Shown one piece after another: positions 23,500 through 64,000 of a DNA stretch of 64,000 bases. The DNA is from a virus. Its lineage: Duplodnaviria > Caudoviricetes. Location: IMG/VR virus record IMGVR_UViG_3300042342_001286. One strand, given 5' to 3'. The position numbers and the translations under genes are program-made. The notes below the pieces were generated by a model. That model did not search any database and was not told the DNA's origin. It was given only the letters and a program-made list of their open reading frames with translations. Position 1 is the stretch's first letter, and each line of letters opens with the position of its first letter.

Positions 23500-23742
23500 T
23501 TATGCTCTTTGTCCTCCGTTTATTCTTCCCGTTAATATATTTATTACTTCGTTGTCAATTTCTTCCACAATTTGTTCCGACATTAATCTTGTTAATTCGG
23601 CCTCAGCATCAATTGAGTAAACGGTATTTAAATCATCAACCAACTCAGGTCTCCATTGAGCACGTAGTGTTCTAACGATATTCTGAATACCTTCTGATTG
23701 AATTGTTATCCCATGAAAAAATCTAAACTCTCTAACACCCAT
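23500..23742 (-). CDS. 80-aa protein containing a T4 gp23-type major capsid spine-helix segment
   Basis: RTLRAQWRPELVDDL...IDAEAELTRLMSEQIVEEIDNEVI matches the recalled gp23 pattern RKLKAQWTxELAQDL...DAEAELxxILSxEIxxEIxREI. Confidence 0.7.
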   Translation of the reverse strand: MGVREFRFFHGITIQSEGIQNIVRTLRAQWRPELVDDLNTVYSIDAEAELTRLMSEQIVEEIDNEVINILTGRINGGQRA

Positions 23743-25004
23743 TATTTAACTTTATTTAACTTAGGTAAAATTAATTTGGTTTGTTGTGGAGGAGGTTGAA
23801 ACGCAATTGAATATGGTTTTAATATCTCCTCAAAACGTTCTTTCATTTTTTCTAAAGAAAAGTTTTGTTTATTCTCTTCTTTAAGTTTTAAAGATTTTAG
23901 TAAGAAATTACTATAATCGTTTCTAGCTATTTTCATAATTTCAGCAACTTCACCATAATTTGCGGTAAACCATTTAGATCCTTTAATAATAAACTGATCA
24001 ATTGCACTATCGTCAACATCTGTTAATTTACCACCAATCATAATTGATTTATCAACAGATAAAAAATCTTTATGACCCGACCAATTGGAAGCCATTACAG
24101 GTTTACCAGTCATTGTAAATTCTAATAAAGGTCTACCAAATCCCTCACCTTTAGTTAGTGAAACCATTAGTTTAATTTTTGGATGGTTATATAGATCATT
24201 CATTTCTTTATTACTTAAATCACCAAATAATAAATAAATAGACGGAGGATTTTTAATATCAGAAACAATATCTTTTATTTTTTTAGTAAAAACTTCCCTT
24301 TCTTTAATTGAAAAACTTGATGATGATGTTTTTAACACTAACGCTGGCATATCATTACCATCCTTAAATGCCTCAACAAAACATTTAATCAACATACCGA
24401 TGTCTTTCCTGTCTTGACCTATGTTTCCTTTTAACCAATGACCAACAAATAAAAATGCGAAGTTTTCTTTAATATCTAATTTAAAATCTTTATTGATTAC
24501 ATCATTAAAGATTGATGTATCAACACCTTCAAATAACACTTCAATTGGTTTTGTTATCTTATGTTGATTAGTTAATTCATTTGTTGTTTTATTTCTTTCA
24601 TCATAAACTGTAGATAATAAAACATCTTTAGAAAAATTAGATGTTGTAATTATTAAATCCATTTGATTACAACCATCAATCCAATCTTTAGGTGCAACAG
24701 TTGTTTCAATTCCTGCGGTGATACCTATATTAAATTTACCAAATCTTTTAAATTCATTAGGTACCGTTACTTGTATATAGATATCAGGTAGACCGTCAAA
24801 TTTATAAACGATATTACTTTCAATCCATTTATGAAATGTATTATCCGGTTCCAAAGCAGTCATGGGAGTATTCCCCCACATACAACTATCAATTTTAATA
24901 TCAAATAAATTCATTTGATACAATGCCTCTAATAAATCTCTTGAGTGTGAACCATATCCACTTCTTGTTTTAACTGGTCCTCTAAATAATATTGTTGGTT
25001 TCAT
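23742..25004 (-). CDS. GT4 glycosyltransferase
   Basis: RSGYG, FVGHW, RKDI, KGEGFGRPLLEF. Confidence 0.85.
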   Translation of the reverse strand: MKPTILFRGPVKTRSGYGSHSRDLLEALYQMNLFDIKIDSCMWGNTPMTALEPDNTFHKWIESNIVYKFDGLPDIYIQVTVPNEFKRFGKFNIGITAGIETTVAPKDWIDGCNQMDLIITTSNFSKDVLLSTVYDERNKTTNELTNQHKITKPIEVLFEGVDTSIFNDVINKDFKLDIKENFAFLFVGHWLKGNIGQDRKDIGMLIKCFVEAFKDGNDMPALVLKTSSSSFSIKEREVFTKKIKDIVSDIKNPPSIYLLFGDLSNKEMNDLYNHPKIKLMVSLTKGEGFGRPLLEFTMTGKPVMASNWSGHKDFLSVDKSIMIGGKLTDVDDSAIDQFIIKGSKWFTANYGEVAEIMKIARNDYSNFLLKSLKLKEENKQNFSLEKMKERFEEILKPYSIAFQPPPQQTKLILPKLNKVK

Positions 25005-26365
25005 TAAATTACTTTATATAAATTAAATCTTTCACGTGGTGTAAAATTCTTTATTGTTTTTTGTATTCCTTCACTCATAGCATCACACATAACTTTTGAC
25101 GATAAGTTATTGATTGCCCACTCTCTTCCCACTTGACCATTCTCTTTTCTTTTTTCTTTACCTAACAAATACATTTCAGTAATAGCATCAGCAACTTCTT
25201 CATCATTAACTCTATCATCATAAATGTAAGGTGTTAATGGGGATCCATTAATGTTAATTGCGGAAGGCCATATTGGTTTAACCCACACACCATAAGGTGT
25301 ATCTTTATGAATTTGTTTATTGTGTAAAGTTTTAATATTGACGTAATCATCCGCAGTATAATTAAACCCACATTGATCTTGTAAACCACCCGTTACACTA
25401 ACAATAATCGGTGTACCAGCCATAATACTCTCAGCGGTACCTAAACCAAATCCCTCATTGTTTGCAATGTTAATCGTACAGTCAGCAATATTATAGAGTT
25501 TATTTAACACATCACTTTCAATTTTATTAGTTGAGAAAACCACATCATAATTAGGACATATTTTATCCCTAACCGCATATAGATCTGTACCATTGTTATC
25601 AATCGGAGTTGTATGCATAACTAAAACACATTTATCTGATTGTTCTTTGGTTAACTTATCACAAAATAATTTAAATGACTCAATAACATCTGAAGGTTGT
25701 TTTCTACGAATATTTCTACTGTTAAAAAATAAAACAAAGTCATATTCTTTATCACCAAACAAACCTTTTTTAACGTCAATCAATTCTTTATCCTCCAACG
25801 GTTTAAATGTATCTTGATTGATACCATGAGGAACATAACTAATTTGCCAATCTTGTAATGGTTTACGAAACTCATCTTCCATTTTACCAACACGATTAAC
25901 AATACCATAAGTTAATTTGGATATACATCCTAACCAATCACAACTTTCGTAGTAATCTTTATTGTACATTGGGTCAGGTAAATTGTCCCATATATGATAA
26001 TATAAAATTGGGACTTGTTGTCTTATTTCATGTTCGGAGTCATATAACCATTGCCAATAATGGGGGTCAGTAAAATGTAAGATAGCATCTATTTTCATTT
26101 CTGATAATATCTTTCTTAACATTACAATATCACCATATGAATTATATGGTATAATTTTTAATTCAGCATCTTTAACTCCTGTCTTTTGTCTAGCATCTTC
26201 GTTAACGTCAACAAATTTACCAGCTTCATGATGATTAATTCCAGCACCCAATTGAACCCAATTAAATCTATCCAAAGTACCCATTACAAATTCTCTAGAC
26301 ATTGTGGAAATACCTGAAGTCATTCGTAAATCATCTGACAGTAATAGTATTCTTGGTTTACCCAT
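25004..26365 (-). CDS. GT4 glycosyltransferase
   Basis: VPHG, RNIRRK, NEGFGLGTAES; ATG start chosen at MGKPR. Confidence 0.85.
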   Translation of the reverse strand: MGKPRILLLSDDLRMTSGISTMSREFVMGTLDRFNWVQLGAGINHHEAGKFVDVNEDARQKTGVKDAELKIIPYNSYGDIVMLRKILSEMKIDAILHFTDPHYWQWLYDSEHEIRQQVPILYYHIWDNLPDPMYNKDYYESCDWLGCISKLTYGIVNRVGKMEDEFRKPLQDWQISYVPHGINQDTFKPLEDKELIDVKKGLFGDKEYDFVLFFNSRNIRRKQPSDVIESFKLFCDKLTKEQSDKCVLVMHTTPIDNNGTDLYAVRDKICPNYDVVFSTNKIESDVLNKLYNIADCTINIANNEGFGLGTAESIMAGTPIIVSVTGGLQDQCGFNYTADDYVNIKTLHNKQIHKDTPYGVWVKPIWPSAININGSPLTPYIYDDRVNDEEVADAITEMYLLGKEKRKENGQVGREWAINNLSSKVMCDAMSEGIQKTIKNFTPRERFNLYKVI

Positions 26366-26366
26366 A

Positions 26367-26564
26367 TTAATATTTTGATCCACTCACAGATAAATCTGTG
26401 TAGTTATTTATTTTATTTCTAAACACATCATCTTTAACATAAAGATCTAAAGTACGATTAACTAACTTTTGTAAATTAATATTACCATCAATTGCATTTA
26501 TTTTAAATTTTCTGTAAACGTCTTCCAATACATGGACACTCGTTAATTTTTTTTCTACTTTCAT
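26367..26564 (-). CDS. small putative ribbon-helix-helix DNA-binding protein
   Basis: LTSVHV strand followed by two predicted helices. Confidence 0.5.
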   Translation of the reverse strand: MKVEKKLTSVHVLEDVYRKFKINAIDGNINLQKLVNRTLDLYVKDDVFRNKINNYTDLSVSGSKY

Positions 26565-26654
26565 ATTCAAATATATATTTATTGATATATTAGATAACCA
26601 AAAAAATATCATCGATTAAGACGATATTTTTGATTATCATTAATGTTGAGGATA

Positions 26655-26825: not shown

Positions 26826-26908
26826 AGTATTTCTTTTTTTATAAATATTTTGGTTTATTGTTTTTATTTCTTATATTTTAATAATACAAAAAATAAATTT
26901 AAATATCA

Positions 26909-28343: not shown

Positions 28344-28344
28344 T

Positions 28345-29550: not shown

Positions 29551-31473
29551 ATGGAGGAAATATTACTTTACCAAACATATACTTACGCGAGAATTACCCC
29601 GTTTAAGAACTATTCTAAGTTCCCAAGAGTGGACACATCACATAGTGGTATACATAAACAAGTGTCATATGAAGACAAGTATGGTGGTAGTACGACCACT
29701 GAATATTATGATGGGGGTAGTGGAGTTCCAATATCACCACTAACAGATGAAATCAAAAAGAAAAAAACAAGATTTTTTTATTGGGACGATGAATATAAAA
29801 ATGCTCCGATTATTATGTATGCTTCCACCCATAAACTAAATGGAACACCGGGGGAGTTTTATACTACAAAGGATAGACACATTAAGAAATACTATAACGA
29901 ACCCCTTAGTGAAATATCAGTTCACATATTAGAAAGGTCAATAATAAAAAAAGGAGATAAGGTTACAATTAAAACAAACAAATTCACAAAATTCAGAGGA
30001 TTTAACTGTAAGTATTTTAAAACAAACAAATACACCACATCAGTTACTTTTGATATGGTTAAAGGGGATTTTTTATTTGTTGATAGTGGTAAACATGGAA
30101 AAACCAAAACCACACCTCGATTTAGAAAGAACGGGTTTCAACAACTTGACAATTTTTTAGATAGTAGTGATGGACCATTTAAGTTTTTAAGAAATCATAT
30201 GGGTAAAAATAATCCATTGTATAAAGAATTAAAAAATAATTTTAAAGATAAAGAATTTAACGACGTATTGAGTAAGGTGTTTAACATTAATTTCACAACA
30301 GATGGGTCATTTTTTAAAACTTTTTTTTATGAAGAGGTTATGAGATGGTTTATTAATACCAAGAAAATAAAGATACCAAACGACTATAAAAAACTATTAG
30401 TTCATTATTACCCAACAGAAAAATACTTAAAGAAAAACGATAGAAAATTAATCGCGTCAGTGTTAGATGTTTATCAAATAAAATCTAAAGTAACAATAAA
30501 ACTATTACACGAGAAACCTAATATTGATTTAGGTTCTTTATATATGTTATGTTATTTGTTCGGTGACAACTACCAAAAATATATTGGTTCCATAAATAAA
30601 GATTTATTTGGAACAACATCAGATAAGGGACATTTAATAGGTGCATCATCATTGAAAAATATGGAAAATATACGTGACAGAATTAAAAATCACGGATATA
30701 ATATAACTGATATTGAAAAAGAAAATTTATTATCGGTGTTAACAAGTGAAACAGAAAAAGGAATATCTGTGGATGAAAATTTTATGGGGTTAGTGATGGA
30801 TCATTTTAGGATGTTGAGTAAAATAAGAGAGTATGATCCTAATATTAGAATGAGAGCAAATACTAGAGTTAAGTTTCATAGTGAACATAATGAATTATCT
30901 AGAATGATATCAGCAATTAAAAAGGGTTGGGTCATTCAATATTTTTATCCCGAAGAAACGGTGAGACAAATTCAACAACCGATTAGTTGTGAGAAAAAAA
31001 GTGAGTTGTGGAAACACAGTAGTAATGGTATTAAAGAACTTATCACCACAGTAAGTGATGGTGAGATAATGATACATCCATATGTTCTAACAAGAGAAGA
31101 GGAATACGTTGAAGAAGGTAGGTTTATGCATCACTGTGTTGCATCATATGCGGAGACAGACACATCAATCATTGTATCATTTAGGACCGAAGATAAACAA
31201 GATAGAGTTACGTGTGAGTTTAAAATATCAGACGGAAGAATGGTACAATCAAAATATTTTTCAAACGCACAACCACCAAAACATTATCAAAATGCAATAG
31301 ATGATGTAAGTGATTTGATTAGAATGCATGCGAGATTTGGAACACTCAACTGGTTAAAGAAGGATAGAGTACCTGTTATGATAAATGGAGTTGAAATTGC
31401 GCCAGAAATGAGAGAACCAAGAAGATTAATAGATATTTTAAATTTAGACGACGCGGAACCGTTACCATTTTAA
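29551..31473 (+). CDS. PcfJ-like domain protein
   Basis: C-terminal EGRFMHHCVASY...RVTCE...VQSK. Confidence 0.7.
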   Translation: MEEILLYQTYTYARITPFKNYSKFPRVDTSHSGIHKQVSYEDKYGGSTTTEYYDGGSGVPISPLTDEIKKKKTRFFYWDDEYKNAPIIMYASTHKLNGTPGEFYTTKDRHIKKYYNEPLSEISVHILERSIIKKGDKVTIKTNKFTKFRGFNCKYFKTNKYTTSVTFDMVKGDFLFVDSGKHGKTKTTPRFRKNGFQQLDNFLDSSDGPFKFLRNHMGKNNPLYKELKNNFKDKEFNDVLSKVFNINFTTDGSFFKTFFYEEVMRWFINTKKIKIPNDYKKLLVHYYPTEKYLKKNDRKLIASVLDVYQIKSKVTIKLLHEKPNIDLGSLYMLCYLFGDNYQKYIGSINKDLFGTTSDKGHLIGASSLKNMENIRDRIKNHGYNITDIEKENLLSVLTSETEKGISVDENFMGLVMDHFRMLSKIREYDPNIRMRANTRVKFHSEHNELSRMISAIKKGWVIQYFYPEETVRQIQQPISCEKKSELWKHSSNGIKELITTVSDGEIMIHPYVLTREEEYVEEGRFMHHCVASYAETDTSIIVSFRTEDKQDRVTCEFKISDGRMVQSKYFSNAQPPKHYQNAIDDVSDLIRMHARFGTLNWLKKDRVPVMINGVEIAPEMREPRRLIDILNLDDAEPLPF

Positions 31474-36067: not shown

Positions 36068-36095
36068 AACCACAATTTGGGATATTTATATTCGT

Positions 36096-37934: not shown

Positions 37935-37976
37935 GTCATAAACGGAGTATTTATATAGACATAGAAGTATACTCAA

Positions 37977-39304: not shown

Positions 39305-39335
39305 TTTGTATATTCAAAAACATTTCATATCTTTG
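39305..39335 (+). promoter_or_regulatory. Bacteroidota-type sigma70 promoter
   Basis: TTTG(39305)-19 nt-TATCTTTG(39328). Confidence 0.75.
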
Positions 39336-39340
39336 TTGGT

Positions 39341-39754
39341 ATGAATATATTACTAATAATTTTCATAATATTGGTTTGGGTAACCTCATCTGTATATGTG
39401 ATGTATTATCATAATAAACATTACACATTAGGTTTGGATATGGTAATAGGTGCAATATTGTTAGGACCAATATTAGCTTTAATAGTGGGAAAGGATGTTG
39501 AAGAGAAGAAGAAATATTATGGGGTAATGGAACAGGAGAGTAATGATAGACATAGAGGATGGTTTAGAACAATGTCAGAAATTAATAGACAACGAATGAC
39601 AAGTTTTGGTAGGTCCATTCCACCTCCACCACCAATATCACGAATTGCCCAAGCACAATCAGAGAGAGATGAAGCAGTTAGGTCGGCAATAGAAAGAATA
39701 GATAAAAATAAATTAAAAGACTTCAAATTTTTGAGGAGTAATGTTAAAGATTGA
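39341..39754 (+). CDS. two-TM membrane protein with C-terminal FKFL tag
   Basis: ATG just after the promoter; ends KLKDFKFLRSNVKD. Confidence 0.65.
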   Translation: MNILLIIFIILVWVTSSVYVMYYHNKHYTLGLDMVIGAILLGPILALIVGKDVEEKKKYYGVMEQESNDRHRGWFRTMSEINRQRMTSFGRSIPPPPPISRIAQAQSERDEAVRSAIERIDKNKLKDFKFLRSNVKD

Positions 39755-40439: not shown

Positions 40440-41012
40440 ATGACAACTAAAGAAAGAATAGAAAAATGTTTAGAGAAACATGAGAATAAAAATATAGTAG
40501 ATAATAATTTACCGTTTTTTGATTACGTTTTAGAATGTTACAATAAATGTATACCACAATCTTATGGACCTAAGATTGAAAAGAGAATTATTAAAGAATA
40601 TAATTTAGGTAGTATAAAAAAAAGTCAAAGTAGGGGAGATTTTTATGTTAAGGAAAATTCAATTATTTCATCAACATTTAAAAATATTTTTAAACCAAAC
40701 GATTCTTCGGAAATAAAAGTTAGTTTTTTAAGTGGCCTTGGTAATAGTGCTTCGTTTAACTTCATTCAACTTAGACCATATGAAACGTTTGATTTTTATA
40801 CATTTGTTACGATAGATTTTGATTTGATTAACAGAGATGCAATATTGGAATGGTATTTATTAAAAAAAGATGTTGTCCATAATGAATTTAATCTTCATCT
40901 TATTCATGGAGGAAAAGAAAGTAATAAAGAAAATAAAAATAAAGAATATAAATTACATGTTGTTAAAAATTCCGAACAACATAAAAAATTGAAGGAATTA
41001 AATTTAATATGA
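40440..41012 (+). CDS. putative PD-(D/E)xK restriction endonuclease
   Basis: RGDFY...EIKVS; overlaps a methyltransferase gene. Confidence 0.5.
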   Translation: MTTKERIEKCLEKHENKNIVDNNLPFFDYVLECYNKCIPQSYGPKIEKRIIKEYNLGSIKKSQSRGDFYVKENSIISSTFKNIFKPNDSSEIKVSFLSGLGNSASFNFIQLRPYETFDFYTFVTIDFDLINRDAILEWYLLKKDVVHNEFNLHLIHGGKESNKENKNKEYKLHVVKNSEQHKKLKELNLI

Positions 41013-43176: not shown

Positions 43177-43208
43177 TTTGATATTCCAAAATATATTTTA
43201 TATCTTTG
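43177..43208 (+). promoter_or_regulatory. Bacteroidota-type sigma70 promoter
   Basis: TTTG-20 nt-TATCTTTG. Confidence 0.75.
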
Positions 43209-46187: not shown

Positions 46188-46199
46188 ATATTTATAGGT

Positions 46200-46463: not shown

Positions 46464-46494
46464 TTTGGAATATCCCAAAAATACACTATCTTTG
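46464..46494 (+). promoter_or_regulatory. Bacteroidota-type sigma70 promoter
   Basis: TTTG-19 nt-TATCTTTG. Confidence 0.75.
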
Positions 46495-48470: not shown

Positions 48471-48501
48471 TTTGTGATATCCTAAATTATACATACCTTT
48501 G
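48471..48501 (+). promoter_or_regulatory. Bacteroidota-type sigma70 promoter
   Basis: TTTG-19 nt-TACCTTTG. Confidence 0.7.
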
Positions 48502-48516: not shown

Positions 48517-49920
48517 ATGAAATATCTTTACTTTTTATTAATTTTGATTTTGACATCGTGTTCAAAACAAATAACATTAACGGTTCAAAATAATGTTGTC
48601 CCTACACCACCTACAAATGTTATTAATGTTCCTGAAAATATATTTAAAGGTTATAAAGTAGATATAAACGCAAGACAATTAGGTTCGGAATATTGGTATC
48701 ATAATACTCCTGTAATTTCTGATGTTATGGTTGGTAAATTTCAATCTAATATCGATGGGGGGAAATATAATTGGTGGTTTCAAGCGGTCGTTTGTGGTGA
48801 TTTTAACAATGATGGTTGGATAGATGTATTTAATTCAGGTTCTAATTATAATGGACCTAAGGCTAATTTTTCCTTTTTAATATGGGATACAATTTCAAAA
48901 ACATACATTAGTAAAAATTTATTTAATGATAAATCATTTACATCGTTTGGCGGTAATAAACATACAGTTAGACCTTGTTATTTAAACGAAGATAACTATG
49001 TTGATTTGGTTATATTTGATGGTGGAGATGAGGGTATACCTAATTCACCAGATGAACTTGTGAGAATTGTGTTAAGTGATGGAAAAGGTGGATACGATCT
49101 TAAAGAAATCCAAACATGTGAAAATGAATTTCCATTAAATAAAAAGGAAAAAGGAGACGTTGGTGATTTAAATGGTGACGGTATTCTTGATTTATTATTA
49201 CCCGCAAACAATTGTGTTTACATTTATTGGGGGATTAAACAATTTCCTTATTTTACACAGACTAACCGATCTAAATTTGTTGGTGATTTTGTAAATTTTG
49301 GAAACTTAAGTAATAATAGTTTTGATGAAAAAGTACAAAGTGTTGGGGGGAACGCATATACTGCATTTATTTCAGATATAAATAACGATGGTAAAAATGA
49401 TATTGTAATTGGTAAAGGGGAAGAACATAATCATAATTTATTTCCCATGCAACCTGTTTTGTTATTAAATCAAGGATCAGGTAAATTTAATTCAAATGGT
49501 TTAATTAAATTACCATTTTATAGACCTGACGATCAAATAAATGTTACAGTTCAAGACATTGTCGTTGATGATGTAAATGGAGATGGGTTAAAAGATATCA
49601 TCGCAATAAATGATCAAATGTCTAAAAATCCAAACAGATGGGCACCTTGGGACATTTATTGTTATATACAACAAAAAGATGGAACATATTTAATAGATAA
49701 AACAATCTTTCAATTTTCAATTAATTCCGTTAGAAAGGGGAATTGGAAAAGAAGATTATTATATTATGATTTCAACGGAGACGGTAAAAAAGATATTAGT
49801 TATATTGATGATGCGATAGGAAACTTACAATATAAATCAGTTTTTATAAGAACGGGAAATCAATTTATAGAAAGTGATTTTTATCAATACGATAAGTTTG
49901 CCAAATCATTTAATTTTTAA
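48517..49920 (+). CDS. lipoprotein with FG-GAP/VCBS repeats
   Basis: Lipobox LTSC; repeated GD(F/L/I/V)N(N/G)DGxxD motifs. Confidence 0.8.
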   Translation: MKYLYFLLILILTSCSKQITLTVQNNVVPTPPTNVINVPENIFKGYKVDINARQLGSEYWYHNTPVISDVMVGKFQSNIDGGKYNWWFQAVVCGDFNNDGWIDVFNSGSNYNGPKANFSFLIWDTISKTYISKNLFNDKSFTSFGGNKHTVRPCYLNEDNYVDLVIFDGGDEGIPNSPDELVRIVLSDGKGGYDLKEIQTCENEFPLNKKEKGDVGDLNGDGILDLLLPANNCVYIYWGIKQFPYFTQTNRSKFVGDFVNFGNLSNNSFDEKVQSVGGNAYTAFISDINNDGKNDIVIGKGEEHNHNLFPMQPVLLLNQGSGKFNSNGLIKLPFYRPDDQINVTVQDIVVDDVNGDGLKDIIAINDQMSKNPNRWAPWDIYCYIQQKDGTYLIDKTIFQFSINSVRKGNWKRRLLYYDFNGDGKKDISYIDDAIGNLQYKSVFIRTGNQFIESDFYQYDKFAKSFNF

Positions 49921-49924
49921 AAAT

Positions 49925-50677
49925 ATGAGATCTTTATATGGTTTTGGTGACAGTTATACTCAAGGTCATTTCTTAAATGATACATTTAAACCGTTTATAC
50001 AATGGAAGGAATATATTGGTAAAGAATTACCTCCGGTGTGGATTGATATTTTAGGTAATAAATTAGATATGAACGTTAAAAATTATGGTTCCGCCGGATC
50101 ATCTAATCAAGAAATATTTCATACGTTTATTCAAAATTGTAATGAGATAAAAAAAGACGATATTGTTATTATTAATTGGACGTACATAGATAGATTTAGA
50201 TGGGCAGCAATGCCTCCTTTTACACCACCTAATACTGCATTTCCATTTTGGAAAAAGATATCTACATCAACACCTAATGATAACGACATAAAAGAACAAA
50301 CAAGAATTGATATAATAGAAAATAGAGTGTCGTACGATTTATACATTGAAGAAGTCTACGACTATCAAAAAATCATAGACCTATTGTCAAAATCAATTGG
50401 GTTTTATGTTTATTATTGGTCGGCAGACACTTCAATTATTTATAGTTTATCTAAAGAAATATTAAATCAAAAAAAATATATTATTAATGATTTAATTATT
50501 TTTAATGATGAAAAATATATTGGAGCCGGTGGTTACTTTTTTGAAACAATCAGTTATCATGGAGGTAAAACCGTCCAAGAAGAAACAAATTATGAATGTA
50601 CAGACAATCATTTAGGGGAAAGCGGACATAGGGTTCAAAGTGAACTTTTTTATAATTATATTAGAAAACATGAGTAA
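49925..50677 (+). CDS. SGNH-like protein
   Basis: FGDSYT, GSSN, DNHL. Confidence 0.6.
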   Translation: MRSLYGFGDSYTQGHFLNDTFKPFIQWKEYIGKELPPVWIDILGNKLDMNVKNYGSAGSSNQEIFHTFIQNCNEIKKDDIVIINWTYIDRFRWAAMPPFTPPNTAFPFWKKISTSTPNDNDIKEQTRIDIIENRVSYDLYIEEVYDYQKIIDLLSKSIGFYVYYWSADTSIIYSLSKEILNQKKYIINDLIIFNDEKYIGAGGYFFETISYHGGKTVQEETNYECTDNHLGESGHRVQSELFYNYIRKHE

Positions 50678-52128: not shown

Positions 52129-52202
52129 ATTAAACAACATGGGTAATAGAAATATTACCCATTTTTGTTTGGAATATCACAACAATTTCTTATATTAGAT
52201 TT

Positions 52203-52317: not shown

Positions 52318-52686
52318 ATGAAAAGATTTGTATTTTTCCACGGGTATCAAGAAGAACATCCATTATTGGATATTGATTGGGATGCAATCAACAGATTGAA
52401 TAATATCAATACTATTATTACTCCAAATTGGGGTGGAATAACATACACCCCAAGCTGGGTAGTAAATCCAGGACTAATAACCTATACCCCACCAAACTAT
52501 ACTATAACCACAACACCCGGTACAGGAACATTTACAATACCTTACAACGGTACAATTAATACGGCAACAGGGTATAGTTTAACAACATCAAATCCAAACG
52601 GAACAACATATACAACAGGAGGAATTGGTGGAACTTTAACAACAGGAACGGCAACATATTTAAGTAGTAGTTTTAAATTACAATAA
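52318..52686 (+). CDS. FVFFHG-tagged protein with Thr/Gly-rich low-complexity tail
   Basis: MKRFVFFHG start; TYTP and TTG repeats. Confidence 0.55.
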   Translation: MKRFVFFHGYQEEHPLLDIDWDAINRLNNINTIITPNWGGITYTPSWVVNPGLITYTPPNYTITTTPGTGTFTIPYNGTINTATGYSLTTSNPNGTTYTTGGIGGTLTTGTATYLSSSFKLQ

Positions 52687-54716: not shown

Positions 54717-55675
54717 TGAAAGATTTAATTTTTATTACGGCATATTGTGAAACACAAAAACAAGAAGAACTCTTGGAACGTTGTATAAATTCAGTTATGA
54801 AATGTGGATTTCATATTGCATTATTATCACATTCACATATACCAATCCATATTCAAAAAAAATGTCAATATTATATGTATGATTATAATAATGATATTTC
54901 AAAAGATTATAATTTATTTGGACACAAAACATTTTATTTTGAAAACAAAAGAATACAATCAAGATTTTTTGCTAAAACATTTTATGGGTTTGCAATTTAT
55001 AGAATGTTTTCAATGGTTAGTCAAATTGCTATAAATTTTGGATATAAAAACATACATCATATTGAATATGATTGTGAATTATTAAACTCAAATTTAATAA
55101 TTGAAAATAATAAGTCGTTAGAGGAATATGATTCGGTGATTTATACCGATACTGGTGATAAAGACGGATTTTTATTTGGATCTTTAAAATCATTTAAAGT
55201 TAGTTCATTACCTGAGAAATATAAAAATTATGATAGGGATTTTATCGATAGTGAGATGAGAAAACTAAATAAAACGTATTTGGAATATCTAACTAAAAAA
55301 TTATTTATTGAATCAGGTAATGTTTTATTTAAAAATGAACCAACGAACAAAGAATTTAAGAGAGGTGATTATTTCAATCACAGGAATTTACATTTTACGT
55401 TATATTATAATCCCGAAGATAGAACATTAAATATTTTTTACAACGCTTCGGAATTTGAAAAATCGGAGGAAATTACTATAATAATTAATAAACAAAAAAT
55501 AGTAAAACTAATAACAAAACCTGGATTTTGGACCACAAGAATTTTAGATTTATTTAATGAAATAACACATGTTAGAGTGGACAATAATAATAAAGTCATT
55601 TATGAAATATCATTTGATAACGAGTTTAGAGAAATTTTTAAAAACAAATCTTATATTTTAAATAATGAAAAGTAA
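54716..55675 (+). CDS. hypothetical protein paralogous to the N-terminal domain of the heptosyltransferase-like gene
   Basis: SHSHIP...YYMYDYNN...HHIEYD versus GHYAVS...YYLYDGNN...HFLEYD. Confidence 0.6.
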   Translation: MKDLIFITAYCETQKQEELLERCINSVMKCGFHIALLSHSHIPIHIQKKCQYYMYDYNNDISKDYNLFGHKTFYFENKRIQSRFFAKTFYGFAIYRMFSMVSQIAINFGYKNIHHIEYDCELLNSNLIIENNKSLEEYDSVIYTDTGDKDGFLFGSLKSFKVSSLPEKYKNYDRDFIDSEMRKLNKTYLEYLTKKLFIESGNVLFKNEPTNKEFKRGDYFNHRNLHFTLYYNPEDRTLNIFYNASEFEKSEEITIIINKQKIVKLITKPGFWTTRILDLFNEITHVRVDNNNKVIYEISFDNEFREIFKNKSYILNNEK

Positions 55676-56105
55676 ATTCAATTTTTTCAGGGGTTATATC
55701 GGCACATTAGATATAATGGACGGAGAAACATATGCGACAGCATCGTTATATTACCCAAGATTAGATTCTAATAATGAAATGGAAAGATATTATGCTGAAC
55801 ATTTCCAAACTATATCTCACGAACAATATATGAGAAATAGAGACATGTTAATTGAACAAGAAAGAATAAGAAGATTAGGAATGATAAATCATTCAAGGGA
55901 AACCGATAACCAAATTAGATTGTTTCAAGCAACAACTACGGTAACCGTAAATCCAACACCATGGACTAAGGTTAAGATATTTGGAACAAGAGTTAAATTG
56001 GTTTTAATTGAAACTTGGAAGTTGGAACCTATCGGTGTTGTGGTGGTGACTCTCTTATCAACAATAATAACATTTATTGGAATTGCAAAATTATTTGGAG
56101 TATGA
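55665..56105 (+). CDS. FNFFRG-tagged protein with C-terminal TM
   Basis: MKSKFNFFRG start. Confidence 0.6.
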   Translation: MKSKFNFFRGYIGTLDIMDGETYATASLYYPRLDSNNEMERYYAEHFQTISHEQYMRNRDMLIEQERIRRLGMINHSRETDNQIRLFQATTTVTVNPTPWTKVKIFGTRVKLVLIETWKLEPIGVVVVTLLSTIITFIGIAKLFGV

Positions 56106-56776
56106 AATTAAATTTACAAAATATTACGGCAATATGTTTACAAGGTAGAGATAATGGTTTTGACGGATCACTTACAACGAGATCTAAAAAATTATTAGAA
56201 TATATGGTTAGTATAATTAATTTCCATAAAATAATATTCATTTCACCTGTAGATCCTGAAGTGGAAGGAGTGGAATATATTTATACCGATCCAGTTGATT
56301 ATCATTATTATAATAGATGGTGTGTTAGGGAATTAACAAATTATATTGATACCGATTATTGTTTATTATTTCAAGATGATGGGTTTCCGTTAAATCCCGA
56401 ACATTGGGATAATGAATTTCTTAACTACGATTATGTTGGATCCCCATTACCTTTGGATAGTGTTATTTTACATCATCCTGAAGAAAGAATCGGTGGCGGG
56501 GGTTTTACATTAAGATCAAAAAAACTATTGAATCTAATGACATCATGGGTAGAGTATGAAGGGAAAGAAAATGAAGATACATACATATGTCATGTGAAAA
56601 GAAATGATTTAATTAGAAAGGGTTTAAAAATATGTCCACATACGATAGCAAGAAAATTTGTAATTCAAAATGCAATAGATGATAATCATACAATATATAA
56701 TACATTTGGATTTCATGGAAGAGATGAAAAATTAGATAAAGTAATGGAAATATTAGATAATGATAGGAACATTTAA
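56102..56776 (+). CDS. DUF5672-like putative glycosyltransferase
   Basis: LLFQDDG, WDNEFLNYDYVG, GGGFTLRSKKLL, ED, FGFH. Confidence 0.75.
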   Translation: MKLNLQNITAICLQGRDNGFDGSLTTRSKKLLEYMVSIINFHKIIFISPVDPEVEGVEYIYTDPVDYHYYNRWCVRELTNYIDTDYCLLFQDDGFPLNPEHWDNEFLNYDYVGSPLPLDSVILHHPEERIGGGGFTLRSKKLLNLMTSWVEYEGKENEDTYICHVKRNDLIRKGLKICPHTIARKFVIQNAIDDNHTIYNTFGFHGRDEKLDKVMEILDNDRNI

Positions 56777-57032
56777 ATTTTTAACAAAATACGAACACCA
56801 TAGGTTTACACCTCATTCTTGTTATGATAACGCAAAGTACATTATTGAAACTTTAATTAGTACAGATGAATGGGAAACAACAATATTCCCAAAAGAATAT
56901 CCACACGAAAATGGTGCATGGAGAGTTCTTTACATACAACGTGGAAGGAATAATTACCATTCCGTTGTTTGTCATGTACCAAGTAATCCAGGATACATAA
57001 TAGATAGATTTAGTGTTAATATAGATTTATGA
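56760..57032 (+). CDS. FKFL-tagged small protein
   Basis: MIGTFKFLT start. Confidence 0.6.
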   Translation: MIGTFKFLTKYEHHRFTPHSCYDNAKYIIETLISTDEWETTIFPKEYPHENGAWRVLYIQRGRNNYHSVVCHVPSNPGYIIDRFSVNIDL

Positions 57033-57361
57033 TTAGAAACTTCAAATTTTTAACTGATAATAATGATGAATTAGAATTCGGAGGGTTTGTTCATGATCTC
57101 CATGATGGGTTTGCAAGTTGGATGTGGACAGGAAGAGACTATTTAGATAGAGACCCAAATTGGGTGGAAGAAGTAATGACCACCACAAGTATAAGAACTT
57201 TTTTAATGAATTTTCCCGAACGAATGATAGTACCAATATTATCCATAACAGGTGATAATATAACGATGACAATAGATAATGATCATGATCCGTGGCCTTT
57301 TAATATATTAGGAGGAACACCACTTCGTATAACTTTTTTAAGATGGATACCAGAAGTTTAA
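57029..57361 (+). CDS. FKFL-tagged small protein
   Basis: MIRNFKFLT start. Confidence 0.6.
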   Translation: MIRNFKFLTDNNDELEFGGFVHDLHDGFASWMWTGRDYLDRDPNWVEEVMTTTSIRTFLMNFPERMIVPILSITGDNITMTIDNDHDPWPFNILGGTPLRITFLRWIPEV

Positions 57362-57496: not shown

Positions 57497-57510
57497 GATA
57501 TTTATATCTA

Positions 57511-58356
57511 ATGAGTGGATTAACAACAATTAAATTAAGTAGTGAAGACCTTAAGAAAGAACAAGAACGCCAACGAAAAAGAGGTAGACTAATCTTTAAG
57601 ACCTTTAAAAAAGGTAAGGTTAAGGTTGTGGTTGGTCGATACGATGAAGACGGAACAGTTCCCGACATGATATTTCAATATCAAATACACGACGCACATT
57701 TTAGATCAATTGTAGACTATACTAATGGAGAAGTTATCTGTGTAATGGATTGTTATTATGATGATATTGATATTCTTAATGAAGACGGTAGTGAAATAAC
57801 CGAAAAATTACCATTGTGGTTAGTTTCGGAAATTGAGAACAAAATTGAAGATAAGTTTGGTAGTTTTAACGTTGAACTCCGTTATATGCAACAATCAGAC
57901 GGAAAAGGAAAGAAAAGTTTGGTTAATGAAAGTGAAGAAGAGGATCAAAAATTAATCAATAAGACTAAACTTATTTATAAGGGATTAAAAAAAGGAGGAA
58001 AAATAGGGTTCAGTCCTGTTGATAGTCCATATCATGAAGTACATTGGACACTACCCAATAAATTTTATGTCAAAATTAAACATCGTAATAAAGAAGAAAC
58101 TGAACTTACCGGTGCCGACACTTATCCTATATTATTATTAAATACTGAAACCATAAATTATACCAAAACCAATGATAAACCATTGAGAAACGGTGATAAA
58201 CATATAGTTTCAGGTAGAATTACAGATCAGTTTAAAAAACATGGTATAACCGTATATTGGGGAGGACAAGTACCAAAATATTCCATTTTTAGTCCTAATT
58301 CAGTGTCTCCCGATGAAACATACACTGAAATAGACATCACCCCAAAGTCAAAATAA
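57511..58356 (+). CDS. two-repeat protein (KxxYKxxKKG units), putative head-internal
   Basis: RLIFKTFKKG and KLIYKGLKKG, separated by LVNE. Confidence 0.6.
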   Translation: MSGLTTIKLSSEDLKKEQERQRKRGRLIFKTFKKGKVKVVVGRYDEDGTVPDMIFQYQIHDAHFRSIVDYTNGEVICVMDCYYDDIDILNEDGSEITEKLPLWLVSEIENKIEDKFGSFNVELRYMQQSDGKGKKSLVNESEEEDQKLINKTKLIYKGLKKGGKIGFSPVDSPYHEVHWTLPNKFYVKIKHRNKEETELTGADTYPILLLNTETINYTKTNDKPLRNGDKHIVSGRITDQFKKHGITVYWGGQVPKYSIFSPNSVSPDETYTEIDITPKSK

Positions 58357-58357: not shown

Positions 58358-58389
58358 TTTGGATATTCCAAATAGGGGTCGTATATTTG
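58358..58389 (+). promoter_or_regulatory. Bacteroidota-type sigma70 promoter
   Basis: TTTG-20 nt-TATATTTG. Confidence 0.75.
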
Positions 58390-58584: not shown

Positions 58585-58908
58585 ATGAACAGAAAAGAGT
58601 ATAGGAGACTATTACAGGACCCCAAATGGAAGATCAAGGCTTCCTTCATAAGAAAGAGAGATAACCACTCCTGCGTCAGATGTGGAAAGAAATCACATAG
58701 ATTACAGGTTCATCACACCAAATACGAAGATGGTCTAATGCCGTGGGAGTACGATAATGATACTTTGGAGTCGTTATGTTCGGGATGTCATAAGAAAGAA
58801 CACAATATTAAACCTAAGAGAAGGTTCACCCCAAGGAAGAAGAAAGAACCCAAATTACAGACAAGAGTTATTAAGATTAAACCCTTTGTTGATTCTCTTG
58901 TTCCCTAA
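58585..58908 (+). CDS. HNH endonuclease
   Basis: CVRCG...LQVHH...LESLCSGCHKKEH. Confidence 0.88.
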   Translation: MNRKEYRRLLQDPKWKIKASFIRKRDNHSCVRCGKKSHRLQVHHTKYEDGLMPWEYDNDTLESLCSGCHKKEHNIKPKRRFTPRKKKEPKLQTRVIKIKPFVDSLVP

Positions 58909-59137
58909 CTCTCAATTCAGTTTTAAAAATTTCAATCCATTCTTGTTTGGTTTTACCCAAATAAACATCAGGTATTTCAGTTAAACCTATCTCTCTTAAA
59001 CAACCTAACGTATTGATTATATGACTATTAGTCATCCAAATAATAGGTGTATCTCTACCTGTGGCAGTTTTCCATGTGGTATTATGTCTATCGTAATTAG
59101 GAACTATTACTTGACCAATAAAGAATTTAAAATTCAT
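58877..59137 (-). CDS. FKFF-tagged small protein
   Basis: MNFKFFIG start; WKTATG...MTNSHIIN phage-type motif. Confidence 0.6.
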   Translation of the reverse strand: MNFKFFIGQVIVPNYDRHNTTWKTATGRDTPIIWMTNSHIINTLGCLREIGLTEIPDVYLGKTKQEWIEIFKTELRVREQENQQRV

Positions 59138-59149: not shown

Positions 59150-60379
59150 TTACAATTTAACCCAAGTTCCATTATGTTTTAAACGAAATTTTGTCGCTCT
59201 AAGAATAATGTTCAATCCAAAGTTGTTAAATTTTTTCTTAACAATATTAAGAATGTCCATTTTAATTGTTTGAATATTATTTAAATTTGGGTTTTCGTCA
59301 CAGTTAATTTTAATTGCCGGTATTAAAACTTTAACATTGTAGTTATTTTCAAATGGATCTGTTTCAACAATGTATACATCACCTAAATCATAATCAAATG
59401 TGTATTTTTGTGGGTCCGTTGCACCTCGATAAAATAATCTTATCGCGTCAACCTCCATTGTTATTTTACCTTTCTTAAGGGCTTTAAAAACAGTCGGCGC
59501 TTTTTTAACAAGTGTTTCGTGTTCGTTTTCCTTCTCTTCTTTTAAAGCAATGATTTGACCACCTTTTACATCGTTTGGTTTTTGATTATCAAAATGAAGT
59601 ACTATGTTGTATTCAAATCTTTCAATTCTTTGTTTAATCATTTGAAGAACGTAATCAATTATTGGTTTTCTTGTATTTTTAGGACCCTCTATGATTTCAC
59701 ATTTAATATCTTTCCAATTAACTATAATACCGATATTACGCATATATTCCTCCAAGAAACTGGTCTTCAATTTATATACTTTAGGTAACTCATATTTTGC
59801 AATTATTTCATGTTCACCGTCTAAGTTATCATTAATTTTAAATTTTATAGTTCCTTTTCTAAATGCCTTATAAACTATTTTAGCTTTTTCTATTTGTTTT
59901 TCCTGTTCTATCGGATCATCAACAATCGATTCGTTCAACATGTTTTCAAAACCATAACTCGGAAGATTATCTTTTTTTCTTATAGAAAGTTCAATATATT
60001 CACCTTCATTAAATGTAACCTTTAATGCGTTATTTAATTTACGTGCAAGTCTCCTCAATAAATCCTCTCTAACATCTATATCATCAGCTAATCCAGGATA
60101 TTTCTCACAATTAATAGTTATACCTGTTATTATTATTTTATATGATGATGATGCGTTTCCTGAAGTTAAATGATATGTTGTGGGTAATTCGTATGTGATT
60201 AAAGCATCACCATCGTCAATCATTTCAAATCCGGTCCAAAACGGAACCATATTAGGGATTAGTTTATCAATCTTAAAACCACCTGTTCTTAGTGTCTTAT
60301 ACATAAGTTTAACCTTACGAGACACCTTACGATAGTCGTCACTTAACATAGATTCCCCCAAGATATCCACAAATTTCAT
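59150..60379 (-). CDS. three-repeat protein (KxxYKxxRKG units), putative head-internal
   Basis: KLMYKTLRTG, KIVYKAFRKG, PTVFKALKKG, each after an LGE/LNE/LKE site. Confidence 0.65.
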   Translation of the reverse strand: MKFVDILGESMLSDDYRKVSRKVKLMYKTLRTGGFKIDKLIPNMVPFWTGFEMIDDGDALITYELPTTYHLTSGNASSSYKIIITGITINCEKYPGLADDIDVREDLLRRLARKLNNALKVTFNEGEYIELSIRKKDNLPSYGFENMLNESIVDDPIEQEKQIEKAKIVYKAFRKGTIKFKINDNLDGEHEIIAKYELPKVYKLKTSFLEEYMRNIGIIVNWKDIKCEIIEGPKNTRKPIIDYVLQMIKQRIERFEYNIVLHFDNQKPNDVKGGQIIALKEEKENEHETLVKKAPTVFKALKKGKITMEVDAIRLFYRGATDPQKYTFDYDLGDVYIVETDPFENNYNVKVLIPAIKINCDENPNLNNIQTIKMDILNIVKKKFNNFGLNIILRATKFRLKHNGTWVKL

Positions 60380-60455: not shown

Positions 60456-60764
60456 ATGGCAATAACTAAAAAGGCGGCAAAGAAGGCCGTACCAAAGGTG
60501 GTTGAAGAACCAAAACAAATCGTTTTAACTCAAGATCAGTATGATGAACTGACTGGACTTAAATGGGATATTAATAACGTATCCAACGAATTAAAAAATA
60601 TCACCACCGATGAAAATAAGAATGTAAGAGAAATTGCATTTGAGTTTGGTGTTCTCCAAGTTAAATTAGAAAAAGTATATGATGATTTAACTAAGATCAC
60701 CGATGCGGTAGACCCCGATCCTTATGTTTGGGAAGATGAAGATGATGACGATAACGACAACTAA
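60456..60764 (+). CDS. hypothetical protein with basic N-terminus and acidic C-terminus
   Basis: 102-aa ORF. Confidence 0.55.
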   Translation: MAITKKAAKKAVPKVVEEPKQIVLTQDQYDELTGLKWDINNVSNELKNITTDENKNVREIAFEFGVLQVKLEKVYDDLTKITDAVDPDPYVWEDEDDDDNDN

Positions 60765-61207
60765 TGTTTAAGTTCAAATTTTTAAGGGGGTTTATTAGTG
60801 CAAGAATAGTAAACATAGAAGAAAGATTAACATTTGTACAACCAAGGTATCCAAGGATACCCATGGGTCAAATTCCATATCCTGAAAATTGTGAAACACC
60901 AAGAGAAAAAAGAATATTTGGAAGAGGATGGAGAGCTTGTGAAAGAGGTATGGAGGTATATGATAATCCATATAGTAATAGGGAAGAACTAATTTATTCA
61001 TTACATAGAATATGGGAAAGTGGATATCTTGAATGTTTTCTTCATCACCCATCAAGACAAATACAACCAACCGATGAGGAGTCTTATCAGGAGGGATGGG
61101 CAACCGCACAATTAGGTCTTCCATTAAATGAAAACCCACATACATACGGATCACATCAATTTAATATGTGGTATGTAGGGTGGAATGACTTTGTTGATAA
61201 TCATTAA
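60764..61207 (+). CDS. FKFL-tagged protein with two RMF-like repeats
   Basis: RGWRACERG...NPY...WESGY and EGWATAQLG...NPH...WYVGW. Confidence 0.55.
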   Translation: MFKFKFLRGFISARIVNIEERLTFVQPRYPRIPMGQIPYPENCETPREKRIFGRGWRACERGMEVYDNPYSNREELIYSLHRIWESGYLECFLHHPSRQIQPTDEESYQEGWATAQLGLPLNENPHTYGSHQFNMWYVGWNDFVDNH

Positions 61208-61210
61208 AAT

Positions 61211-61537
61211 ATGCGTGACTTTAAATTTTTATCTAAGAACGATACAATAAACTTTAACGGACAAATGTCGATTGAAGCACTCAGATATTTCAATGATTAT
61301 GTTAATAATGTAATTAGATATGAAATCACAACACCAACCGCAACATATAGGATGGTGGATTACACTTATGGTGACGGTAACATTGTGGCGGGAACTATCA
61401 ACGCACATCCATCAGGTGTATCCAATGTAATGGTCACCTATAGTATAAGGGGTGGAGAGATTACATCACATACAATACATATAGATTATTGGAATACCAT
61501 GGGACAATTGGCAAATGCAATAAGACGAGAGGATTAG
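61211..61537 (+). CDS. FKFL-tagged small protein
   Basis: MRDFKFLS start. Confidence 0.6.
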   Translation: MRDFKFLSKNDTINFNGQMSIEALRYFNDYVNNVIRYEITTPTATYRMVDYTYGDGNIVAGTINAHPSGVSNVMVTYSIRGGEITSHTIHIDYWNTMGQLANAIRRED

Positions 61538-61590
61538 TTGAATAACAATTCCTTAACATTGCCGAGCATATTTATATTCTATTTATGTAG

Positions 61591-62968: not shown

Positions 62969-62973
62969 AATAT

Positions 62974-63004
62974 TTTGTATATTCAAACTAATATCTTATA
63001 TTTG
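62974..63004 (+). promoter_or_regulatory. Bacteroidota-type sigma70 promoter
   Basis: TTTG-19 nt-TATATTTG. Confidence 0.75.
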
Positions 63005-63008
63005 TATC

Positions 63009-63464
63009 ATGACCGACGCTCAAATAGTAATATCAGTAATTTTTGCTGTAATATTTTTCGTAATTCTTATCTTTAATGTGGTTTCATACCCAAACGTGAA
63101 ATTATATAAAAAGAAATATGATGAGTTAGAACGCGGTGTGTATAAGTATCAACCAGATCATGGTCAATCACGTTATTTTTATCTATACAGTTATGATATT
63201 AATACTTTAACATTTACACGTACCGATGTTAATATCATATTCTTTCTTGACGGTGATATAAAACTAACAAATAATTTATACATACACAAAAGTAATTTGT
63301 TTATGTCATTAGTTAGTTGGTATTATTGGAGAAAGTTTCAAAAGTTAAACGATGAGTTGGTTGTAAATTATGAAAGAGGACTTGATGTTAGACAGATTTA
63401 TAATAGGGCTGTTGAATTAGAAAGGAAACGAAATAAGTTAGAATTTAAATTTTTGCGGGGATGA
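63009..63464 (+). CDS. membrane-anchored protein with C-terminal FKFLRG tag
   Basis: N-terminal TM; ends KLEFKFLRG. Confidence 0.6.
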   Translation: MTDAQIVISVIFAVIFFVILIFNVVSYPNVKLYKKKYDELERGVYKYQPDHGQSRYFYLYSYDINTLTFTRTDVNIIFFLDGDIKLTNNLYIHKSNLFMSLVSWYYWRKFQKLNDELVVNYERGLDVRQIYNRAVELERKRNKLEFKFLRG

Positions 63465-63847
63465 TAATACCATTTAAATTTTTTGTGGGGAAGGTTTATA
63501 CCGATGAATTTGAATTTCCAAGAGTAAGGAGATCTCCAGAACATATAGGTAGAGGATATATTCAAACAATCTTACCGACCGAACCATATCTTGCAACACT
63601 ACCAGAACCCAACTATGATACTATGGTTATTCGTTATGTCAGAAGTTTTATGAGAGGAAATACAAATTGGAGAGGATATGAAGAAGCTTGGATGGATGAA
63701 AGAAATGAATATGTAAGATTAAAGATATTGGGCGGTATTAATATCGGTGGGATGATGCATATTACTTATGAAATAACAACACACCACACAACGTCACAAA
63801 GATATCGTGTAAGTGTCCCATTAGTTAATTTACAAAGAAGAGGATAA
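63461..63847 (+). CDS. FKFF-tagged small protein
   Basis: MIIPFKFFVG start. Confidence 0.6.
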   Translation: MIIPFKFFVGKVYTDEFEFPRVRRSPEHIGRGYIQTILPTEPYLATLPEPNYDTMVIRYVRSFMRGNTNWRGYEEAWMDERNEYVRLKILGGINIGGMMHITYEITTHHTTSQRYRVSVPLVNLQRRG

Positions 63848-63848
63848 T

Positions 63849-64000
63849 ATGATAAACCAATTTAAATTTTTTGAGGGGAGACCAAAAAGATTATATCACT
63901 ACGACCTATTGGTTGGAGGTGTACCTGTTGAGGTAATAACTTCAAACGAACCACCAACACATTTTTTTTCTGGTCCCACACAACATCTTGGTTTTTATGT
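63849..64000 (+). CDS. FKFF-tagged protein, truncated by window end
   Basis: MINQFKFFEG start; open to the end of the window. Confidence 0.55.
   Translation, partial: MINQFKFFEGRPKRLYHYDLLVGGVPVEVITSNEPPTHFFSGPTQHLGFY

Follow-up and report, generated by a model that had tools for sequence, protein, structure and literature searches.

A portable F-K-F-[FL] end-peptide on mostly unrelated small proteins of an uncultured large phage

The IMG/VR virus record IMGVR_UViG_3300042342_001286 (Duplodnaviria; Caudoviricetes) was analysed over a stretch of 64,000 nucleotides (nt), here called the window, which has a base composition of 30% G+C. Twelve small proteins encoded in the window carry a short aromatic peptide at one end, the tag, with the consensus [KR]-x-F-K-F-[FL]-x-(G), placed either 1-4 residues past the initiator Met or at the C-terminus. 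An earlier, sequence-only reading had listed these twelve termini and proposed a portable docking or sorting motif that recruits diverse effectors to one partner. All twelve tags were found where it had placed them, ten N-terminal and two C-terminal. The tag is real and strongly selected, and very probably serves at the protein level as an address with one common reading partner. In the literature searched it is nowhere described, and the letters FKFF were met only in the synthetic cell-penetrating peptide (KFF)3K.

Enrichment and conservation of the tag

Chance occurrence was modelled with the products of 104 open reading frames (ORFs) of the window, each shuffled 1000 times with Met kept. 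Ten N-terminal motifs were observed against 0.24 expected (shuffle maximum 4), an enrichment of about 40-fold, and interior motifs stayed at chance level with 6 observed against 6.7 expected. The enrichment over shuffled controls on which the sequence-only reading had staked its proposal in advance is present at the N-termini; the two C-terminal motifs of the window, against 0.40 expected, are not significant alone. An internal FKFL in 29551-31473 (residue 209) was rejected as a tag. It lies in the sequence D-G-P-F-[KR]-F-L-[RQ]-N-H, which orthologues conserve together with its flanks down to 69% identity, and is probably a piece of a folded domain.

The window belongs to a clade of uncultured lake phages of about 330 kb in IMG/VR, whose hosts are probably Flavobacterium-like. 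A relative in the same database, G003 (335,630 bp, completeness rating 100%), encodes a Gp23-type capsid protein, an S77 prohead protease and PolB, and the capsid protein together with the protease places the clade among the T4-like phages by gene content. The closest cultured capsid protein, that of Flavobacterium phage vB_FspM_immuto, shares 40% identity. G003 contains at least 19 N-terminal and at least 3 C-terminal tags (shuffle expectations 1.0 and 1.7), mostly within one stretch that spans the record ends, from 335395 to 17493. The 97-kb fragment G001 extends the array past the window end, with about 15 tandem tagged genes at 76684-81089. A DNA pattern scan of IMG/VR returned mainly chance single matches, plus several additional tag-bearing contigs, and the consensus is identical in all contigs examined, with no switch between lineages. 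In this cultured Flavobacterium phage the tag-coding pattern showed no excess (6 matches against 10 for a control), and a megablast search with 14 kb of the window against GenBank phages gave no match.

Orthologues retain the tag at either end, so that the free loss named beforehand as a refutation of the docking proposal is not seen. For 58877-59137(-), 49 of 50 full-length homologues, down to 55% identity, begin with M-x-F-K-F-F-x-G, the exception reading FKVF, and F-K-F-[FL]-R-G closes 119 of the 120 homologues of 63009-63464. In an alignment of 34 orthologues of 58877-59137(-), down to 59% identity, no substitution is seen at F, K, F and G, whereas the linker behind them consists of 4-8 hypervariable residues with insertions and deletions. 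Judged by this comparison, the tag is under purifying selection. That its Phe codons vary had been taken as a sign of selection on the protein, and the counts agree: TTT accounts for 80% and 77% of the Phe codons at the two tag positions and for 80.4% in the genome. The tag Lys is AAA in 86% (genome 79%), and the Leu codons include CTA, CTT and CTC, with synonymous differences between orthologues. Because Phe, Lys and Leu codon usage in the tag equals genome usage, selection is assigned to the peptide.

Directly behind the tag, the rare codons AGG and GGG are over-used in all contigs, for example at 60785-60790 and 63485-63490 of the window. Of 33 gene starts with Gly behind the tag, 18 use GGG for it (43% with each cluster counted once), against 7.5% in the genome and 13.5% of Gly codons within the first 15 codons of untagged genes. 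The Arg preceding it is AGG twice as often as AGA, AGG making up 10% in the genome. Orthologues vary among GGG, GGA and GGT at this Gly. The bias could stem from the spread of a tag cassette (a founder effect), from pausing behind the tag, or from an RNA feature. No tRNAs for GGG and AGG were found in G003, which carries a transfer-messenger RNA (tag peptide ATSTVAVA) and four tRNAs (Glu, Ser, Met, Thr) at L033:6275-6679 and L033:10452-11590. A frameshift site, judged from sequence only, was rejected, the heptamer being out of phase.

The carriers and their unrelated cargo

With the first 12 residues masked, 114 distinct N-tagged proteins fall into 42 blastp clusters. Profile-profile comparison of the 20 largest clusters with hhalign gave probabilities below 5% for 188 of 190 pairs; two pairs reached 82% and 73%, and none 90% or more. 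The carriers had been called unrelated; as a qualification, 63461 and 63849 share one blastp cluster unmasked, but separate once the tag is masked. Masked clusters, profile comparison and codon tests agree on a portable tag under protein-level selection, attached to mostly unrelated cargo. Pfam searches of 93 carriers recovered six Gp23 pieces and four ribosome modulation factor (RMF) matches and otherwise nothing meaningful, and with PHROGs added, Gp23 pieces and RMF remained the only matches.

The capsid pieces are instructive. The cargo of 23500-23742(-) is a piece of a T4-type major capsid protein (Pfam Gp23, PF07068, positions 135-194, E 4.8e-12), and a tagged G003 protein (12980-13453, L029) carries Gp23 positions 8-89. 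The parent capsid gene is untagged and begins MGALLESG; since internal pieces of the capsid protein bear a tag that the parent gene lacks, the tag is grafted. These are two different tagged small proteins with neighbouring pieces of the capsid protein (N-arm; following helix). The G003 piece presumably corresponds to the N-arm that holds the T4 Gol peptide, a binder of EF-Tu. Such tagged capsid pieces may be decoys for capsid-sensing defences.

Two explanations that would do without a selected address can be weighed here. A single fast-diverging paralogue family, of which the first strand is the only recognisable remnant, would account for tandem arrays of similarly sized proteins (75-190 amino acids, aa), for the merging of some clusters when sequences are added, and for the two related cluster pairs. 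It is nevertheless extremely improbable, given the near absence of similarity among the other profile pairs, a cargo that spans capsid pieces, RMF-like repeats, a Thr-rich tail and membrane proteins, the existence of C-terminal tags, and a tag that is not packed against the domain in the AlphaFold2 (AF2) model. A nucleic-acid or translation signal, in which the A/T-rich codons, alone or together with the G-run, would act in initiation, in pausing or in cassette recombination and the peptide would be a by-product, is very unlikely. The tag does have a DNA consensus, TTYAAATTTTT, often followed by NNG-GGG, and the strong preference for GGG and AGG behind it would fit such a signal, as would the place of both C-terminal tags 17-19 nt before the ATG of the next gene. 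Bacteroidota, moreover, work without Shine-Dalgarno sequences, and start-proximal mRNA structure tunes their initiation (PMC6847099). Yet the synonymous sites of Phe, Lys and Leu are free, Leu being sometimes CTA or CTT, the distance from ATG to tag varies from 1 to 4 codons, and A/T-rich Ile, Asn and Tyr codons never substitute for Phe in 50 orthologues. All eight exact plus-strand copies of TTYAAATTTTT lie in frame at ORF ends, and the coding strand has no exact out-of-frame or intergenic copy. For Phe, Lys and Leu and for the plus-strand copies, neither the conserved synonymous sites nor the frame-independent copies that would mark a nucleic-acid signal were found.

Structure prediction places the tag on a loose end. 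AF2 modelling of 58877-59137(-) from the orthologue alignment gave a predicted local distance difference test (pLDDT) score below 50 for residues 1-6 and of 80-91 for the domain. The model of 63009-63464 has a transmembrane (TM) helix at residues 3-25, and at the tagged end of its long helix pLDDT drops from 58 to 47. An unstructured, exposed terminal segment with a flexible region behind it, as is typical of degrons and chaperone sites, is seen in both the pLDDT values and the linker alignment, and in these models the tag has the character of a short linear motif, flexibly tethered at a free end. Foldseek comparison of the 58877-59137 model with the PDB gave no match, nor did ESM Atlas searches with two carriers. 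A signal peptide or membrane-targeting helix was rejected for the tagged starts, where the post-tag linkers are polar, without a hydrophobic core or an amphipathic helix of at least 8 residues; starts with at least 7 hydrophobic residues among the next 12 had been removed as signal-peptide-like before the tagged starts were counted. The median isoelectric point (pI) of the carriers is about 6.

The N-terminal pattern M-x(1-4)-F-[KRNV]-F-[FL] begins ten ORFs of the window. Gly follows the tag (position +6) in seven of them, and this residue of the proposed motif is therefore not universal. On the minus strand, the capsid-piece protein 23500-23742(-) (80 aa) starts MGVREFRFFHG, with F-R-F-F at 23716-23727, and 58877-59137(-) (86 aa) starts MNFKFFIG, with F-K-F-F at 59120-59131. 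The remaining eight are on the plus strand. The 122-aa product of 52318-52686, which has a Thr/Gly-rich tail, starts MKRFVFFHG (F-V-F-F at 52327-52338), and its orthologues in G1 and G2 keep the tag with a synonymous TTT/TTC change. Two overlapping genes follow further on: 56760-57032 (90 aa; start MIGTFKFLT; F-K-F-L at 56772-56783), whose G003 orthologue begins MIKPFKFLTKYEHH, and 57029-57361 (110 aa; start MIRNFKFLT; F-K-F-L at 57041-57052), with tagged orthologues in G1, G2 and G3. The 147-aa product of 60764-61207 starts MFKFKFLRG, with F-K-F-L at 60773-60784, and carries RMF-like cargo (Pfam E 3.3e-5, under the family cut-off); its orthologues begin MKLPKFNFLRG and MGLSTFRFLRG. It is followed by 61211-61537 (108 aa; start MRDFKFLS; F-K-F-L at 61220-61231). 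Near the end of the window, 63461-63847 (128 aa; start MIIPFKFFVG; F-K-F-F at 63473-63484) has a start that overlaps the stop of 63009-63464, and 63849->64000, cut by the window end, starts MINQFKFFEG, with F-K-F-F at 63861-63872.

Three carriers are membrane proteins, and in each the tag sits at the terminus opposite the TM segment, as the sequence-only reading had noted. The tenth N-tagged ORF, 55665-56105 (146 aa; start MKSKFNFFRG; F-N-F-F at 55677-55688), is tail-anchored: its C-terminal TM-like segment is visible in the sequence and scores as TM-like in the G1 and G3 orthologues; orthologues carry F-K-F-F. The two others have N-terminal TM helices and close with F-K-F-L-R-[SG]. The small membrane protein 39341-39754(+) ends ...KDFKFLRSNVKD, with F-K-F-L at 39722-39733, and its orthologues in G002 and G003 keep the tag; 63009-63464(+) (151 aa) ends ...LEFKFLRG-stop, with F-K-F-L at 63444-63455.

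A second end-peptide is found on modifying enzymes (oxygenase-, sulfotransferase- and SGNH-like), which close with [NK]-x(0-3)-L-[ILV]-stop, as in ...ETNKLI, ...KNKQNLI and ...TKNKRLL. It occurs in nine consecutive genes at 623-7770 and at 40440-41012 of the window, at 126835-127140 of G003, and in L014 and G002 49013-50221. Two G002 enzymes end DFTFFKNLI and DYNFFQSLI, in which FxFF is joined to the second tail, and N-K-L precedes the C-terminal FKFL tags.

Promoters, timing and late-gene leaders

An unbiased count of 8-mers upstream of G003 genes ranked TATTTATA first among the motif classes, with 63 genes and a 17-fold enrichment. The motif, (G/A)TATTTATA, has its first base 11-46 nt ahead of the start codon of structural genes, in most cases 11-25 nt ahead. 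In G003 it stands before the genes for the portal, protease and scaffold and before genes of the sheath, tube and baseplate regions, and is therefore read as a late promoter. Counted as TATTTAT[AT] in the 40 nt upstream, it was found at none of 23 tagged genes, whereas 72 of all 431 genes of G003 have it (Fisher p 0.02). In the window it lies, for example, at 57499-57506(+), before the untagged repeat protein 57511-58356; others are at 36083-36090, 37948-37955, 46189-46196 and elsewhere.

Several tagged operons are led by promoters of the host type. The Bacteroidota consensus is TTTG, 17-21 nt, TAnnTTTG (PMC6847099, PMC9723704). A perfect promoter of this form (TTTG, about 19 nt, TAnnTTTG) at 62974-63004(+) ends 5 nt before the ATG of 63009 and leads the overlapping, co-oriented genes 63009, 63461 and 63849. 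Another perfect one, TTTG-N-TATCTTTG at 39305-39335(+), leaves 5 nt to the start codon of 39341-39754, the first gene behind it. The same type, TTTGGATATTCCAAA...TAnnTTTG, is seen at 39305-39335, 43177-43208, 46464-46494, 48471-48501, 58358-58389 and 62974-63004, and an imperfect one lies upstream of 60456-61537. In G003, a promoter at 7618 leads an overlapping, co-oriented string that includes tagged genes up to 15511. These promoters end only 5-30 nt before the ATG, which makes the mRNAs almost leaderless, and their form points to a Bacteroidota (Flavobacterium-like) host. Since host-type promoters start the operons and the late promoter never stands directly upstream, many tagged carriers are inferred to be early proteins.

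The late genes own leaders of a different kind. The T4 capsid-targeting sequence (CTS) reads MKTYQEFIAE (PMC3012670, PMC8442874). Ten G003 proteins start with MK[LF]xD[IL][IL]xE, seven of them with the late motif directly upstream and three just behind a gene of the same class; a second leader class in G003, MK[VI][IL]I[TS]ExQL, has the late motif at four of four genes. The window protein 59150-60379(-) belongs to the first class and is a repeat protein with [LIV]-[NK]-E ahead of each unit. By leader and promoter, these late-gene proteins are better candidates for head-internal, protease-cut proteins than the tag carriers. Late-gene leaders with Phi-x-E sites are found in the window at 59150-60379(-), 46200-46457 and 42903-43112, and in G003 at 15550, 18951, 21498, 42494, 44070, 46935 and others. 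Both 57511-58356 and 59150-60379(-) consist of repeats of about 125-135 aa, each opening, after [LIV]-[NK]-E, with K-x-K-[LI]-[IVM]-[YF]-K-x-[LF]-[KR]-[KT]-G, which is reminiscent of the tag. The repeat-protein family is small, with 16 representatives among 1.8 billion proteins. The late repeat-protein genes flank an HNH endonuclease gene, 58585-58908, which extends into the 3' end of 58877-59137(-).

These leaders bear directly on the idea that the tag itself is a head-loading label, docking proteins on the scaffolding core for packaging and injection with the DNA. A Gp23 capsid protein and an S77 prohead protease make the phage T4-like; the internal proteins of T4, otherwise diverse, have in common only an N-terminal CTS of about 10 aa (PMC3012670; PMC8442874); and the tag carriers likewise have a short N-terminal leader in common and are otherwise unrelated. 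Their genes lie in the variable region, interleaved with late genes, and RMF-like and capsid-piece cargo would suit injected effectors. The idea is improbable all the same. The late motif that serves the portal, protease, scaffold and tail genes lies directly upstream of none of the 23 tagged genes, and the late genes have their own, separate CTS-like leaders. A potential protease site, [LIV]-x-E within 16 residues after the tag, is less frequent in the 114 proteins (12%) than in control windows (26%), and the linker of the 34 aligned orthologues has no conserved Glu or protease site. The carriers' pI contrasts with the 'highly basic' T4 internal proteins (PMC8442874), three carriers are membrane proteins, which argues against packaging of those three, and two tags are C-terminal. 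Of the three partner types proposed by the sequence-only reading (host hub protein, protease adaptor or phage compartment), the phage compartment, taken as the head, is least favoured. Somewhat better placed, though still unlikely, is a motif that docks on a host or phage hub without proteolytic activity. Such a hub might be RNA polymerase, the ribosome, a sliding clamp, a membrane complex, or a multi-site scaffold formed by the neighbouring repeat proteins. Flexible aromatic motifs of 4-6 residues at either end are typical of clamp-binding and hub motifs, the RMF-like domain and the Gp23 8-89 piece (through the presumed Gol equivalence) both point at translation, and repeat-protein genes interleave with tagged genes in the window and in G003. 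However, PolB of G003 (146785-149682) ends ...AFHAIEI, no replication or structural protein of G003 is tagged, and no untagged neighbour is conserved across tag-bearing contigs. Pfam detected no gp45-type clamp in G003 (PF09116 and PF02916 gave no match, although a divergent clamp could escape these families). A sliding-clamp-binding motif was rejected specifically, the tag being absent from PolB and from all replication genes in the G003 motif list. Next to the replication genes of G003, 174041-174880 (L037:14041-14880) is a candidate for a single-stranded DNA-binding protein (SSB), by this adjacency and by its end, ...DGDLPF, which resembles the bacterial SSB tip.

Candidate readers and known systems

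The reading preferred here is an address tag that one common partner reads. Dozens of accessory proteins, most of them unrelated, carry this portable, flexible peptide at their free cytoplasmic end, with a rapidly evolving linker between tag and cargo, and one very conserved reader would bind it as a short exposed stretch. A consensus that stays constant across contigs suggests a slowly evolving reader, hence probably one of the host. That this reader belongs to the host protein-quality-control machinery is a tentative proposal. Candidates would be an AAA+ protease (Lon, ClpXP or FtsH) or a chaperone of the Hsp70 or trigger-factor type, machines that bind exposed aromatic-plus-basic stretches at either protein end. 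The outcome would be a common handling of all carriers, in the form of a set lifetime, folding help, or delivery of a held partner. A handling machine is the simplest reader because the tag combines a free cytoplasmic end, use of either terminus, an aromatic-basic make-up, a flexible linker and probable early expression. Lon recognises exposed aromatic-rich stretches, DnaK and trigger factor reportedly favour hydrophobic or aromatic cores flanked by basic residues (Rudiger 1997; Patzelt 2001), and the degradation of membrane proteins by FtsH or ClpXP begins at the free cytoplasmic end.

Several points weigh against this reading. Of the original docking-motif proposal, the portable and selected tag stands, while its single partner is putative, and a search for the reader among the neighbouring genes found none: no untagged neighbour gene is conserved across most of the 12 tag-bearing loci, and Pfam searches of ten untagged neighbours returned phosphoesterases, a GT2 glycosyltransferase, an HNH endonuclease and DUF5672, with no peptide-binding domain; other neighbours belong to no family. 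Known degrons and chaperone sites are degenerate, but both Phe residues of the tag hardly ever give way to another residue, Tyr, Leu and Trp included, which suggests a specific pocket. The anomalous Gly and Arg codons behind the tag may signal a nucleic-acid or translational effect riding along. The early timing is inferred from promoter motifs, and some carriers fit it poorly: a late motif at 26840-26847(-) precedes the operon that contains 23500-23742(-), 58877-59137(-) starts 13 nt behind the late repeat-protein gene 59150-60379(-), and a strong hairpin terminator at 52139-52162 separates 52318 from the host-type promoter upstream. Tagged genes are also interleaved with late genes for putative head-internal proteins, and a role in the virion is possible. 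A co-fold of one pair, 59150-60379(-) with 58877-59137(-), scored 0.00 and carries no weight either way.

A bolder extension of the quality-control proposal, and a distinctly long shot, is an arsenal built from modules, in which each cargo domain would hold its own target in the host or its defences and the FKFF handle would pass that target to one host machine, for example a protease. Capsid-piece decoys would then hold capsid sensors and the RMF-like domain ribosomes, and the phage would in effect make 'targeted degraders' with exchangeable warheads.

If true, a label of 4-6 residues on at least 40 unrelated protein families would represent a compact viral sorting or handling code, and identifying its reader would reveal by what means a large phage handles its many accessory proteins. 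One genome may run several peptide address systems side by side, namely the FKFF tag, the CTS-like leaders and the ...NK-x-L-I tails. The presence of the tag on fragments of the phage's own capsid protein may be relevant to the way in which phages cope with capsid-sensing defences, and the tag could possibly serve as a portable handle in Bacteroidota, a phylum with few genetic tools. New in this analysis are the shuffle statistics, the orthologue and codon tests, the disorder prediction and the unrelatedness of the cargo families, together with the promoter and leader evidence that sets the tag apart from the phage's T4-like head-loading leaders.

Four known systems invite comparison. In the T4 CTS, too, a leader of about 8-10 residues is the sole common part of small, diverse, fast-evolving proteins encoded in a variable region, but that leader ends in a prohead-protease site and is cleaved, whereas no conserved Phi-x-E stands behind the tag. 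The internal proteins of T4, basic and soluble, are synthesised together with the head; the tag carriers have a pI of about 6, are in part membrane proteins, lack the late promoter, and in two cases are tagged at the C-terminus. Encapsulin cargo-loading peptides are short terminal peptides that send unrelated cargo inside an HK97-fold shell, and this phage tags pieces of its own HK97-fold capsid protein; the motif sequences are unrelated, however, and loading into a shell is not indicated by the present data. The end-peptides that bind clamps and hubs (clients of the T4 gp45 clamp, the acidic tails of T7 gp2.5 and gp4, SSB tips) likewise place one terminal peptide on unlike proteins for one partner, although theirs sit on replication and transcription enzymes, while the tag carriers are small proteins without a known family, in a phage in which no clamp was found. 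The signals for AAA+ proteases and chaperones (aromatic signals of Lon, N- and C-motifs of ClpX, sites of DnaK and trigger factor) differ in being degenerate and mostly on host proteins, whereas F-x-F-[FL], as read here from sequence, is near-invariant on dozens of proteins of one phage. Like the tag, these signals are short, exposed and aromatic or hydrophobic with basic residues, occur at either terminus with a flexible stretch behind them, and can be moved between unrelated proteins.

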